In this document: positions 10,810 through 43,024 of the stretch, one piece after another
Layout of the letters: every line of letters begins with the position of its first letter
Position numbering within the stretch: the first letter of the stretch is position 1
Sequence record: MZ189261.1
Direction: 5' to 3' (one strand)
DNA from: Escherichia phage S143_2
DNA length: 64,000 nucleotides
Notes under the pieces: generated by a model
What the model was told of the DNA's origin: nothing
Databases searched by the model: none
Seen by the model: only the letters and a program-made list of their open reading frames with translations
Position numbers and translations under genes: made by a program

Positions 10810-10847
10810 ATTAGAAATGAGATAAAGAAGACCAGGCGGCACCTGGT
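10810..10847 (-). terminator. rho-independent terminator after nrdH-like gene
   Basis: 6-bp stem ACCAGG/CCUGGU with 5-nt loop directly after stop codon, followed by U-rich tract on minus strand. Confidence 0.5.
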
Positions 10848-11170
10848 CAATCTTCTATGATATCAGAGTCGTATCCTAATGAAATCAAGGACTTTTTAAA
10901 CTCTGCAATATTCTTTTGTTTCTTATCATTTAAAAATATGACAGGATAACGAATATTAAGTGAAGTGAATCCTGCACGTTTAGCAAGAGATACGATTAAA
11001 GGACGGTCGTATTCAATCTTACCATTATTAGTGAGGACTTTATAAAATGTATAAGGAGCATTGAGCTCCTTTAAAAGTTTTGTAACAGCATAACATCCTG
11101 GACAACGTCCTACTTCTTCAGGGATGCCATAGATTTCAATCTTGTTCTTTAAGTTCGAGTTTTGTTCCAC
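10847..11170 (-). CDS. nrdH: NrdH-like glutaredoxin (start uncertain, possibly GTG at 11170)
   Basis: KIEIYGIPEEVGRCPGCYAVTKLL: beta-strand then CPGC redox motif typical of glutaredoxin fold; no in-frame ATG near domain start. Confidence 0.5.
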   Translation of the reverse strand: MEQNSNLKNKIEIYGIPEEVGRCPGCYAVTKLLKELNAPYTFYKVLTNNGKIEYDRPLIVSLAKRAGFTSLNIRYPVIFLNDKKQKNIAEFKKSLISLGYDSDIIED

Positions 11171-11453
11171 GAGAAATAATTCCTTGGTAAGCCCAATAAG
11201 GAGGATTAACAGAATCCTCACCAGAGTTTTCTTCAGGAAAATAAACCTGGATAACGAAGCCGGATTCATCAAATGTAAAATAAACTGTAGGCAGTTCACC
11301 TAACAATTCGACACGAGCATTAATTTCTTCGAGATCTCGTTCACGTCCAGCCCAAAAACTAGGATTTAGATTACATTCGTAAAAATAATAGTCATTACCG
11401 AACATATCAAACCCCTTCCAACTCTCTACCACGTACCGCTCAAAACTAATCAT
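11136..11453 (-). CDS. hypothetical protein
   Basis: 105-aa ORF immediately upstream of and overlapping the glutaredoxin-like frame. Confidence 0.4.
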   Translation of the reverse strand: MISFERYVVESWKGFDMFGNDYYFYECNLNPSFWAGRERDLEEINARVELLGELPTVYFTFDESGFVIQVYFPEENSGEDSVNPPYWAYQGIISRGTKLELKEQD

Positions 11454-11455
11454 AA

Positions 11456-11671
11456 TTAAGCCTTTTTATCAAGAACAGAATTCAGTTTGTTAGTAATTTT
11501 GTCCAGACGCTCATTGAACTCACTAGAAGATAAACCCTTTTCTGGAGAAATTAAACTAATCACGAAAAATACACCAGTAAAAGGAATAAGAAAAATAGCT
11601 CCAACTGCCATAAACAAAAAGAACGTTACAGTTGTAAGAAAATCAGCTAAACCTTTACGAAATTTGTACAT
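11456..11671 (-). CDS. small membrane protein
   Basis: 71 aa with two hydrophobic helices (FLTTVTFFLFMAVGAIFLIPFTGVFFVISLI). Confidence 0.45.
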   Translation of the reverse strand: MYKFRKGLADFLTTVTFFLFMAVGAIFLIPFTGVFFVISLISPEKGLSSSEFNERLDKITNKLNSVLDKKA

Positions 11672-11781: not shown

Positions 11782-12252
11782 TTAATCATGTTTCCACACC
11801 CCATCGGTATTTGACCAAAGTCGCTGATTATCTGATCCTCGCCACAGCTTTTTAGTCGGAAGATTTTTCTCATACTTCCCATCAATAATAACATCAACAT
11901 ATTTAAGCATTTCTAGTTGTTTAATATCTTCAAACTTATATCCTGTCCACAACCAAATGCTTTTATTGGGATAAAGATTTTTTACTGTTTGAGCAATGCG
12001 ATGAATAACATCTCGGTTATCAGGATAGAGAGGGTCTCCTCCGGTTATAGTTAATCCTTCTATATAATCATTATTCAAACATTCAATCAATTGTTCTAGT
12101 GTTTCACCAGTGAATGGAATACCATTTCTAGCATTCCATGTTGATTTATTATAACACCCTTCGCATTTATGCAAACAACCCGTAACGAAAAGAACGACCC
12201 TGCAACCAGGGCCATTCACAAAATCGCAAGGATAAAATCTATCATAATTCAT
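11782..12252 (-). CDS. nrdG: anaerobic ribonucleotide reductase activating protein NrdG
   Basis: 156 aa; radical-SAM CxxxCxxC (CLHKCEGC); directly downstream of nrdD. Confidence 0.9.
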   Translation of the reverse strand: MNYDRFYPCDFVNGPGCRVVLFVTGCLHKCEGCYNKSTWNARNGIPFTGETLEQLIECLNNDYIEGLTITGGDPLYPDNRDVIHRIAQTVKNLYPNKSIWLWTGYKFEDIKQLEMLKYVDVIIDGKYEKNLPTKKLWRGSDNQRLWSNTDGVWKHD

Positions 12253-14066
12253 TGGTGTTTAACCCTATGCATGATTTCTTTATTTTTGCCGAGATTAAAT
12301 CCGCGTTCGTTCGGATTTCCCAAATAACCACAAGTTCTTCTTATTGTGTTCATCTTTTTAGGGTCAGTTTCTCCGCAAACTGAACAAACAAATCCGTTTT
12401 CAGTAGGAGTCATTTCATGGGTACTTCCACATGTAAAACATTTATCTACTGGCATATTAACACCAAAATAATCTAAATGTTGTGCGGCATAATCCCATAC
12501 AGCCTCAAGACCTTTTAAGTTATTTTTCATATCAGGAAGTTCAACATAAGAAATGTGTCCGCCAGTCGCAATGAAATGATATGGGGCTTCGCGAGAAATC
12601 TTTTCAAACGGAGTGATATTTTCTTCTACTGAAACATGGAAACTATTAGTGTACCAGCCTTTATCAGTAACATCCTTTACACTTCCATATTTTTCAGTAT
12701 CAAGTTTACAGAAGCGATAACAAAGGTTTTCAGCAGGTGTAGAATACAAACTAAAAGCAAAACCGGTTCTTTCAGTCCACTGTTTAAGATGAGCATTCAT
12801 TTTAGTTAAAATTTCTTGTCCAATATCACGACCGACAAGAATATTCAATTCGTGAATACCAATGTATCCTAGGGACACTGAACTTCTACCGTTTTTAAAT
12901 AACTCAATTATATCGTCATCAGGTTTAAGACGAACCCCGAATGCACCTTCTTGGTAAAGAATAGGAGCAACAGTCGCTTTAACTCCTTTTAAGGAACTAA
13001 TTCTACACATCAAAGCTTCAAAACACAAATCCATTCGTTCATTGAACAATTCGGCAAATTTCTGTTCATTGAATTGTGTTCCAATATAAGAATCTAACGC
13101 AATGCGAGGAAGATTCAGTGTTACAACACCAAGATTATTGCGTCCATCAAGAATTTCATTACCAGTCGAATCTTTCCATACACTCAAGAAACTACGGCAA
13201 CCCATTGGAGAAACTGGAACTGAAGAACCAGTAATAGCTTTATTATTCTTAACCGAAATAATGTCAGGATACATTCTTTTGCTTGCACATTCTAACGCAA
13301 GTTGTTTAATATCATAGTTCGGATCATCTTTATAAAGATTAACACCTTCTTCAACGAACATAACAAGCTTAGGGAAAATAGGAGTTATTCCATCACGACC
13401 AAGGCCTTTAATGCGGTTTTTAAGAATTGCTTTCTGAATCATTCGTTCAGTCCAGTCGGTTCCTGTACCAAATGTAATTGTTACAAAAGGAGTCTGTCCG
13501 TTTGAACTAAAGAGAGTATTTACTTCATATTCATAAGCTTGGAATGCATCGTATACGTCTTTTTCTGTTTTAGATTGAGCATAATTCAACGCATCAGCGA
13601 TTTGCCATTTTTCTGCATCTTCAACATGTTTAGCGTATGTGCGTTTAACATAAGGAGAAAGAACTTTATCGACATTCGCAAATGTAGTTCCGCCATATTG
13701 GTGTGAAGCAACTTGTGCGGTAATTTGTGCCATAATTGCAGTAGCAACGCCAATAGATTTAGGCGTTTCAATTTGAGCATTGCCTAATTTAAATCCATTC
13801 TCAAGCATCCCCTTTAAATCGACTAAACAGCAATTAGTAAATGGAAGAGCAGGAGAATAATCAATATCATGCATGTGAATGATTCCGCTTTCATGCGCAT
13901 TCATAATAAAAGACGGGACCATATTTTTGGCAATGTGCTTAGACACAATACCAGCCATAAGGTCCCGTTGAGTTGGAAAAACACGAGAATCTTTATTAGC
14001 ATTCTCGTTTAAAAGGTCTTTATTAGTTTTATGAATTAATCCTTCAATTTCTTTTTCAATTTTCAT
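12249..14066 (-). CDS. nrdD: anaerobic ribonucleoside-triphosphate reductase NrdD
   Basis: 605 aa uninterrupted; C-terminal glycyl-radical motif RTCGYLG and Zn-ribbon CFTCG...CSVCG. Confidence 0.95.
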   Translation of the reverse strand: MKIEKEIEGLIHKTNKDLLNENANKDSRVFPTQRDLMAGIVSKHIAKNMVPSFIMNAHESGIIHMHDIDYSPALPFTNCCLVDLKGMLENGFKLGNAQIETPKSIGVATAIMAQITAQVASHQYGGTTFANVDKVLSPYVKRTYAKHVEDAEKWQIADALNYAQSKTEKDVYDAFQAYEYEVNTLFSSNGQTPFVTITFGTGTDWTERMIQKAILKNRIKGLGRDGITPIFPKLVMFVEEGVNLYKDDPNYDIKQLALECASKRMYPDIISVKNNKAITGSSVPVSPMGCRSFLSVWKDSTGNEILDGRNNLGVVTLNLPRIALDSYIGTQFNEQKFAELFNERMDLCFEALMCRISSLKGVKATVAPILYQEGAFGVRLKPDDDIIELFKNGRSSVSLGYIGIHELNILVGRDIGQEILTKMNAHLKQWTERTGFAFSLYSTPAENLCYRFCKLDTEKYGSVKDVTDKGWYTNSFHVSVEENITPFEKISREAPYHFIATGGHISYVELPDMKNNLKGLEAVWDYAAQHLDYFGVNMPVDKCFTCGSTHEMTPTENGFVCSVCGETDPKKMNTIRRTCGYLGNPNERGFNLGKNKEIMHRVKHQ

Positions 14067-41829: not shown

Positions 41830-42174
41830 TTATTTTGGCATATCATCAATTTGCTCTCGACGCCGACGCCATAGATTAATCGCTTCATTAACACATTCGG
41901 CGTTTGGTATATGACGGCAATAATATAATGATTCGCGTTTCTGGAACCGATGTTGCAATGGGATTTCGTTTAAAAGGTCTTTACGGTCAAAGTATTCAAA
42001 ACTAGTTAACCCGGAACGGTTTTTAATGAACTTCCAATGACCGAATTCATTTTGAACATAGATGTAATCTGCGTGTTGGTATAACAAATTAATCAATCGG
42101 TCTGAAATAACTGTATCATGTTCGTTAAAATAAAACGTTAAATCATGAACTACTAAGTAAACATTACCTTTCAT
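41830..42174 (-). CDS. hypothetical protein (start corrected to ATG 42174)
   Basis: 115 aa from MKGNVYLVVHD...; track start 42222 would overlap tRNA-Arg. Confidence 0.45.
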   Translation of the reverse strand: MKGNVYLVVHDLTFYFNEHDTVISDRLINLLYQHADYIYVQNEFGHWKFIKNRSGLTSFEYFDRKDLLNEIPLQHRFQKRESLYYCRHIPNAECVNEAINLWRRRREQIDDMPK

Positions 42175-42192: not shown

Positions 42193-42269
<77 letters not shown>

Positions 42270-42273
42270 TATT

Positions 42274-42348
42274 TGGCGGACGTGATAGGATTCGAACCTA
42301 TAACCAATCGCTTAACAGGCGATCGCTCTGCCATTGAGCTACACATCC
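42274..42348 (-). tRNA. tRNA-Asn (anticodon GUU)
   Basis: 75-nt cloverleaf; anticodon stem ATCGC/GCGAT, loop CUGUUAA; T-arm GGTTCGAATCC; encoded CCA. Confidence 0.8.
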
Positions 42349-42352
42349 AAAT

Positions 42353-42439
42353 TGGTGGGGAGTGATGGAGTCGAACCACCCGAGTCGCAATGACAATGGA
42401 TTTACAGTCCACACCGCTACCTCTACGGGATAACTCCCC
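42353..42439 (-). tRNA. tRNA-Tyr (anticodon GUA)
   Basis: 87 nt with long variable arm; anticodon loop CUGUAAA; acceptor GGGGAGT/ACTCCCC; encoded CCA. Confidence 0.75.
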
Positions 42440-42451
42440 TAATTCATAATT

Positions 42452-42526
42452 TGGTGGCCCTGGGTGGAATTGAACCACCATCTGGCGATTATGAGTCGCT
42501 TGCTTGAACCTTCCAGCTACAGGGCC
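42452..42526 (-). tRNA. tRNA with CAU anticodon (Met or Ile2)
   Basis: 75-nt cloverleaf; anticodon loop CUCAUAA; position after Thr corresponds to T4 tRNA-Ile. Confidence 0.75.
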
Positions 42527-42527
42527 T

Positions 42528-42604
42528 TGGTGCTGATTGACGGAATCGAACCGCCGACCTTCTCATTACAAGTGAGTTGCTCTACCTACTGAGCTAAATC
42601 AGCA
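42528..42604 (-). tRNA. tRNA-Thr (anticodon UGU)
   Basis: 77-nt cloverleaf; anticodon loop CUUGUAA; T-arm GGTTCGATTCC. Confidence 0.8.
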
Positions 42605-42608
42605 AAAC

Positions 42609-42698
42609 TGGCGGAGGCGATAGGATTTGAACCTATGAGTCGCCGGAGCGACTGCCGGTTTTCAAGACCGGTGCATTAAACCACTCTGCCACGCCTCC
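42609..42698 (-). tRNA. tRNA-Ser (anticodon UGA)
   Basis: 90 nt with long variable arm; anticodon loop CUUGAAA; acceptor GGAGGCG/CGCCTCC. Confidence 0.8.
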
Positions 42699-42700
42699 AG

Positions 42701-42774
42701 TCTCCATACAAGGATTTGAACCTTGGGCCTCCTGATCCCAAATCAGGCGCTCTACCAAACTGAGCTACACGGAG
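42701..42774 (-). tRNA. tRNA-Pro (anticodon UGG)
   Basis: 74 nt; anticodon loop UUUGGGA; T-arm GGTTCAAATCC; CCA not encoded. Confidence 0.75.
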
Positions 42775-42784
42775 TAAATTAAAT

Positions 42785-42858
<74 letters not shown>

Positions 42859-42863
42859 AAATT

Positions 42864-42950
42864 TGGTGCGAGAAGTGGGACTCGAACCCACAAGGAAATC
42901 ATTCCGCAGCATTTTAAGTGCTGTGCCTTTACCAATTTGGCCATTCTCGC
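42864..42950 (-). tRNA. tRNA-Leu (anticodon UAA)
   Basis: 87 nt with long variable arm; anticodon loop CUUAAAA. Confidence 0.8.
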
Positions 42951-42951
42951 G

Positions 42952-43024
42952 CTGGGAATAAAGGACTCGAACCTTTGCATCCTGGAATCAAAATCCAGTG
43001 CCTTACCAACTTGGCTAATTCCCA
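42952..43024 (-). tRNA. tRNA-Gln (anticodon UUG)
   Basis: 73 nt; anticodon loop UUUUGAU; T-arm GGTTCGAGTCC; CCA not encoded. Confidence 0.75.

Follow-up and report, generated by a model that had tools for sequence, protein, structure and literature searches.

We conclude that nrdH and the 105-aa ORF that overlaps its start (ORF105) are very probably two separate genes, and that NrdH is translated from the GTG at position 11170. By the window, we mean the whole 64,000-nucleotide stretch of Escherichia phage S143_2 (MZ189261.1) that was analysed. The original prediction was that a glutaredoxin-like frame abutting an upstream ORF might have a GTG start with translational coupling, or might be part of a fused gene that was broken by a frameshift, or might reflect a sequencing error. 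The GTG start is strongly favored by its conservation, by a Shine-Dalgarno sequence, by upstream stops in relatives, by the pattern of substitutions, and by the annotations of the T4 and Sf21 genomes; as explained below, the other two did not hold up. The arrangement itself is ordinary and was already known, as many GenBank records annotate this GTG start.

The window is DNA of a T4-like phage (Mosigvirus), judging by its matches: a 1-kb query from this region matches 657 T4-like phage records, of which the best is the Mosigvirus KMB38 (98.8% identity; Mizar is 98.1% identical). The coordinates of the features at this locus are given in Table 1. Every coordinate in the original prediction proved right, including those of the overlap, which is 35 nt long. 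A co-oriented string of genes (nrdD-nrdG-55.8-ORF105-nrdH) ends at a terminator-like hairpin. The order of nrdD, nrdG, and 55.8 upstream of nrdH on the same strand is as in T4, and the annotations of related phages describe the 55.8 homologue as similar to T4 55.8. The ATG of ORF105 starts 2 nt after the stop codon of the 55.8 homologue. The hairpin is G+C-rich and scores as terminator-like on both strands, with the T-run following it on the minus strand; several related records carry a "terminator" feature within the matched stretch.

Table 1. Features of the nrdH locus, in window coordinates.
Feature	Position	Strand	Remarks
nrdD	14066-12249	-	605 aa
nrdG	12252-11782	-	
55.8 homologue, small membrane protein	11671-11456	-	phrog_1930, E 1.9e-35
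ORF105	11453-11136	-	ATG start; TGA stop at 11138-11136; phrog_2749
Stop-free extension of the nrdH frame	11171-11299	-	non-coding in this frame
Shine-Dalgarno AAGGA	11185-11181	-	10 nt 5' of GTG; inside ORF105 codons Gln90-Gly91
GTG initiation codon of nrdH (probable)	11170-11168	-	
ORF105/nrdH overlap, probably dual-coding	11136-11170	-	35 nt; last 11 codons of ORF105, first 11 of nrdH
nrdH	11170-10847	-	GTG start; 107 codons plus TGA stop
CPGC active-site motif	11104-11093	-	from the translation
Terminator-like hairpin and T-run	10830-10848	-	directly after the nrdH stop; 8-bp stem with 5 G-C pairs (consensus scan)

By sequence comparison, the gene is an ordinary T4-type nrdH glutaredoxin and the orthologue of nrdH in other Tevenvirinae. 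The 107-aa protein is 86% identical to T4 NrdH over 100 aa (residues 8-107, E 4e-67), and nrdH is present in 1351 phage records. The protein also matches phrog_22 ("thioredoxin domain", E 9.5e-16). The match to the Pfam Glutaredoxin family (PF00462) covers only residues 22-57 and scores 22.4 bits (E 1.5e-4), just below the curated cut-off of 22.9, so we place NrdH in the thioredoxin-fold superfamily, as one of its divergent members. A scan of NCBIfam found no match to an NrdH-redoxin model (GlrX_YruB was far below its threshold, at 14.3 bits vs. 88.55). Sharing a gene name with the bacterial NrdH-redoxin, the reductant of class Ib ribonucleotide reductase, does not imply orthology. T4 nrdH (T4p072, NP_049686.1) encodes the second glutaredoxin of T4, and the T4 record has a note of glutaredoxin activity. 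The primary paper is Gvakharia et al. 1996.

The redox motif, CPGC, lies after the first beta-strand (KIEIYGIPEEVGRCPGC), and T4 NrdH has the same motif. Within the mechanically called 150-aa ORF (11299-10847), KIEIYG, which forms the first strand, starts at residue 53 (position 11143) and CPGC occupies residues 66-69, which bears out the earlier placement of the domain at about residue 55. A single-sequence AlphaFold model of NrdH was unusable (mean pLDDT 43.3), so we relied instead on sequence alignments to T4 structures. The closest solved structure by sequence is the T4 glutaredoxin encoded by nrdC (formerly T4 thioredoxin; 1AAZ and 1ABA), and this similarity is weak (E 0.02). The alignment includes the CxxC site, with CPGC opposite the CVYC/CGPC site of these structures, and extends over the alpha/beta elements that come after it. 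The nrdC product differs in having CVYC instead of CPGC, in being encoded at another genomic locus, and in lacking an N-terminal tail. Its structures align from their residue 3 to residue 12 of NrdH, which implies that the fold begins at KIEIYG, just after a short tail. If translation starts at the GTG, this tail has nine residues (EQNSNLKNK) after the initiator.

The original prediction suggested comparing orthologous loci. All of the two-gene loci that we examined have the GTG, and these come from five named genera as well as metagenomic relatives. These genera are Mosigvirus, Tequatrovirus (with and without ORF105), Gaprivervirus (RZ and SP18), Dhakavirus (WG01 and ABTNLsp5), and Kanagawavirus (CIP9, PEi20, and KLB31); Enterobacter phage MY742 is a related case. 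The metagenomic relatives retain the GTG even though their ORF105 is only 66% identical. We also scanned IMG/VR and metagenome contigs with a degenerate pattern for the junction. This identified 23 junctions that are followed by the glutaredoxin motif, and in 22 of these, the domain is in the frame of the GTG. The spacing from the GTG to IEIYG is 5, 6, 7, or 10 codons, depending on the lineage, and is always in frame. The codon of ORF105 that contains the GTG is CGT (Arg) in some relatives and TGT (Cys) in others. That the GTG persists while this codon varies points to a constraint on the GTG itself. Finally, RZ, WG01, and locus L007 have stops in the nrdH frame just 3-11 codons 5' of the GTG, so a start farther upstream is impossible in those phages.

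The GTG is also preceded by a plausible ribosome-binding site. In relatives, the Shine-Dalgarno sequence is AAGGA, AAGGAG, or AAGGTGG, and it lies 6-10 nt 5' of the GTG. In the window, the predicted duplex of AAGGA with the 3' end of the 16S rRNA has an energy of -5.4 kcal/mol, which is better than for any other canonical start candidate in this frame. This Shine-Dalgarno sequence is encoded by conserved Tyr-Gln-Gly codons of ORF105. A spacer of 10 nt is at the long end of the range of Shine-Dalgarno spacings for initiation in E. coli, and the combination of this spacer with a GTG codon suggests that the output of NrdH is modest. Existing annotations agree with this start: the closest relatives annotate the same coding sequence from the GTG, and the record for Sf21 notes an "alternate start codon GTG". 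T4 nrdH is annotated from a GTG as well, with in-frame stops 4-5 codons upstream and AAGGA 6 nt before the GTG.

We aligned ten loci of the window's type and classified each variable site as synonymous or non-synonymous in each frame. The 283 nt that precede the GTG contain 47 variable sites, of which 32 are synonymous and 15 non-synonymous in the frame of ORF105, as compared to 2 and 45 in the frame of nrdH. The substitutions upstream of the GTG fit only the ORF105 frame, and the nrdH frame evolves like non-coding sequence there. Across the 289 nt downstream of the overlap (68 variable sites), the counts are 5 synonymous and 63 non-synonymous for the ORF105 frame and 38 and 30 for the nrdH frame. 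The 35-nt overlap contains just two variable sites (one synonymous and one non-synonymous in either frame). The fraction of sites that vary is lower in the overlap (2/35) than in the flanks (115/572; Fisher p = 0.044), and this fits dual coding.

By these comparisons, ORF105 is a real stand-alone gene and represents a protein family. Its full length matches phrog_2749 (E 4.9e-49), and it is present in 526 phage records. Every homologue that we found in two very large protein collections is a stand-alone protein of 88-105 aa, and the 105-aa form is common, with 248 member sequences in its cluster. Scans of ORF105 against Pfam and NCBIfam found nothing, and a Foldseek search of PDB with its AlphaFold2 model gave no match at E 0.001 or better. 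The model itself has a mean pLDDT of 80.8. Its pLDDT falls below 50 only in residues 95-105, and these are exactly the residues that are encoded by the overlap. The overlap thus corresponds to a C-terminal tail of ORF105 that is predicted to be disordered.

The exact end of ORF105 is not the same in all phages. At 11144-11142, the window has CAA where all nine of the other aligned loci have TAA, so the window's ORF105 reads on for two more codons to its TGA (...KEQD*), which lengthens the overlap from 29 nt to 35 nt. This difference is synonymous in nrdH (AAC vs. AAT, both Asn).

Is the translation of nrdH coupled to that of ORF105? Both the start codon and the ribosome-binding site of nrdH lie within the 3' end of ORF105. 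We considered whether nrdH might have a promoter of its own within ORF105, but ORF105 contains neither a late-promoter motif nor a MotA box, and the frequency of sigma-70-like matches in the region does not exceed that of shuffled sequences. Given this layout and the lack of an internal promoter signal, the genes are very likely read from one mRNA. We also considered coupling via RNA structure and dropped it, as there was no significant fold that would sequester the start: the strength of local structure at the nrdH start does not exceed that of shuffled sequence (z = 0.66). Ribosomes that translate ORF105 would pass over the ribosome-binding site of nrdH and terminate 29-35 nt downstream of it. 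Because this site is inside ORF105, the synthesis of NrdH is probably linked to the translation of ORF105, and coupling is plausible. The classic coupled pairs with an ATGA overlap are similar in that the second gene has its start and its ribosome-binding site within the 3' end of the first. The window's pair differs from these in that the start is a GTG, 35 nt ahead of the stop of ORF105, and here it is from this layout that we infer coupling. In phiR1-RT, a distant homologue of ORF105 (g075, 89 aa, at 641-910 of locus L021; hhalign probability 99%) precedes an ATG-started nrdH, and these two genes have the classic ATGA overlap of stop and start. This suggests that the linked translation of the pair is old, and it also implies that the pair itself is old within the Tevenvirinae. 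The upstream ORFs of JD18, Proteus phage ABTNLPp2, and Erwinia phage COW86c were considered as homologues of ORF105 as well, and these turned out to be unrelated. The arrangement may keep NrdH at a low level, tied to the translation of ORF105.

One could go further and propose that ORF105 and NrdH are functional partners, that their synthesis is deliberately linked via the overlap, and that a 199-aa protein from Pectobacterium phage PM2, which contains both parts, is a genuine fusion of the "Rosetta stone" type. We think that this is unlikely. If it were true, then ORF105 would be an unrecognised accessory factor of the phage's glutaredoxin and anaerobic ribonucleotide reductase system.

Turning to other ways of accounting for the nrdH frame, NrdH might instead begin at a non-canonical codon near the stop of ORF105, such as the ATT at 11140-11138. 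Ribosomes would then re-initiate after finishing ORF105, and the protein would begin at the first beta-strand. The idea is not arbitrary: in distant orthologues (JD18, Kp17-11, and phiR1-RT), an ATG directly precedes I-E/K-I/V-Y-G, often in an ATGA overlap, and the ATT in the window shares a base with the TGA of ORF105. Nevertheless, it seems improbable. The ATT has no Shine-Dalgarno sequence (-0.9 kcal/mol), and because ORF105 stops 6 nt earlier, at a TAA, in nine of the ten aligned loci, the overlap of ATT with TGA is peculiar to this sequence type. Starting at the ATT would also leave the conservation across genera of the GTG, of the Shine-Dalgarno sequence, and of the in-frame spacing unexplained.

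It had been stated that there was no in-frame ATG nearby, and this needs to be amended: there is an ATG at 11269-11267, which is 33 codons 5' of the GTG. This ATG lacks a Shine-Dalgarno sequence, and the sequence around it evolves like non-coding DNA in this frame. If this ATG were the start, then NrdH would have 140 aa, and ORF105 would not be a gene. We consider this very improbable, even though ATG is the canonical start codon and one public record, for NicPhage, uses the equivalent ATG and omits ORF105. The energy of the best duplex with the 16S rRNA is unfavorable (+0.8 kcal/mol). Upstream of the GTG, the nrdH frame has the excess of non-synonymous changes (45, vs. 2 synonymous) that marks non-coding sequence, and in RZ, WG01, L007, and T4, stops interrupt it. 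Also, ORF105 belongs to a protein family that is conserved, and its fold is predicted with confidence. The extension of the nrdH frame in Table 1 is broken by stops in L026 and L027 as well as in RZ, WG01, and L007. At first sight, 43 codons without a stop 5' of the GTG might seem to be a signal, and we examined whether this was so, using as a baseline the +1 frame of the window's long ORFs, which has 0.06 stops per codon. Of the 960 stop-free runs in that frame, 57 reach 43 codons or more, and these hold 24% of the codons. As the length of the run is within chance, we discarded it as a signal.

It is even harder to credit that ORF105 and nrdH are or were a single gene, whether as a fusion that was broken by a frameshift, as was proposed, or with a programmed +1 frameshift that yields a fusion protein. 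The pair is overlapping and tightly conserved, and PM2 does have one continuous ORF with both parts. But ORF105 forms a stand-alone family whose homologues from sequence search all have 88-105 aa, T4 has an NrdH without any ORF105, and the two parts are in different frames in the five named genera. In the 22 scanned junctions other than PM2's, the glutaredoxin domain is in the frame of the GTG and there is a stop in the frame of ORF105. As for a programmed frameshift, the required shift is +1, and we noticed neither a slippery sequence nor a prfB-like motif within 11170-11136. The nrdH-frame stops near the GTG in several genera would leave about 9-10 codons for any shift to occur in.

The exception, PM2, deserves a closer look. 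We found its protein, PM2_077 (annotated as "glutaredoxin"; KF835987.1 41901-42500, minus strand, or 11902-12501 of locus L029), by running Foldseek against models of viral proteins. It has a homologue of ORF105 joined to NrdH, with 45% identity to ORF105 in the N-terminal half. The continuous frame reads ...YQGIISSGKKYPKIEIYG..., and the DNA at the junction is TCT AGT GGA AAA AAA TAT CCT AAA ATT GAA. PM2 retains the conserved GTG, but one base out of frame with the glutaredoxin domain, which is in the frame of ORF105. The junction includes a run of seven As, and adding one more A to this run would restore two genes: ORF105 would end with ...SGKKIS*, and nrdH would read GTG-EKKYPK-IEIYG. PM2 is also a singleton. 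It has no close relative in the phage collection or in IMG/VR, and when IMG/VR was searched for PM2-like junctions, only PM2 itself was returned. A search for homologues of the 199-aa protein is uninformative here, as it missed even the T4-like NrdH proteins. Its nearest relatives, the Kanagawavirus, have the two-gene arrangement with the GTG. So the fusion in PM2 reflects either a sequencing error in a homopolymer or a recent one-base deletion, and if the single frame is real, then the comparison with its relatives indicates that it is derived rather than ancestral.

Last, a sequencing or assembly error in the window, for which the only argument is the unusual appearance of the locus, can practically be dismissed, because the 101-nt junction (11110-11210) recurs in 425 independent phage records (matching over at least 80% of its length), of which 64 have at least 99% identity, and two (vB_EQ1 and NicPhage) are identical to it.

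Having settled on a GTG start within ORF105, we can compare the locus to that of T4. T4 nrdH is like the window's nrdH in having an RCPGC site, a GTG start, and an AAGGA, and in being downstream of nrdD-nrdG-55.8 and upstream of 55.6. T4 differs in that it lacks ORF105, so that nrdH follows 2 nt after the stop codon of 55.8, and in that the Shine-Dalgarno spacer is 6 nt instead of 10 nt. Also, the N-terminal tail of T4 NrdH is five codons shorter: T4 reads VKQNKIEVYG..., so its tail is VKQNK, as compared to VEQNSNLKNK in the window. At the DNA level, there is an indel of about 320 nt (11136-11475 of the window vs. 42113-42120 of T4, NC_000866), which is bounded by the end of 55.8 and, on the other side, by the AAGGAAT just before the GTG. 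ORF105 adjoins nrdH in six named genera (Mosigvirus, Tequatrovirus, Gaprivervirus, Dhakavirus, Kanagawavirus, and Tegunavirus), so it is simpler to suppose that the T4 lineage lost it. As AAGG is present at both flanks in the window, it is conceivable that a microhomology-mediated deletion occurred in the T4 lineage. Among the Mosigvirus and Tequatrovirus, KMB38, Mizar, Sf21, and EC.W14-2 have the same two overlapping genes as the window and the same GTG start.

The main value of these results is for the quality of annotations: comparative evidence fixes the probable start of nrdH at a conserved GTG and indicates that ORF105 is a real gene. This gives a firm call for a locus that has been annotated inconsistently, and it flags the PM2 record. 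The locus could also serve as a textbook case of a non-ATG start within the (predicted) disordered tail of an upstream gene, and it does not imply any new mechanism. The inconsistencies take several forms. For example, the NicPhage record (OY726582) that was mentioned above has nrdH from the upstream ATG, with 140 aa, and leaves out ORF105. In WG01 (NC_031928), nrdH is annotated from an internal ATG, and the first beta-strand is lost. In Sf23 (MF158046), nrdH is annotated from a TTG that was created by a change from TCG. ORF105 is unannotated in KMB38 (OR525701), and it is the intact ATG-started nrdH that is unannotated in phiR1-RT (NC_019909).

We also noticed two other features of the window. 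First, nrdD is uninterrupted and overlaps nrdG (11782-14066), and this region contains neither the I-TevII intron nor the homing-endonuclease gene mobC, both of which are present at the corresponding locus of T4. Second, the window includes 10 tRNA genes on the minus strand, at 42193-43024 (Arg-TCT, Asn, Tyr, Met/CAT, Thr, Ser, Pro, Gly, Leu, and Gln); T4 has eight.
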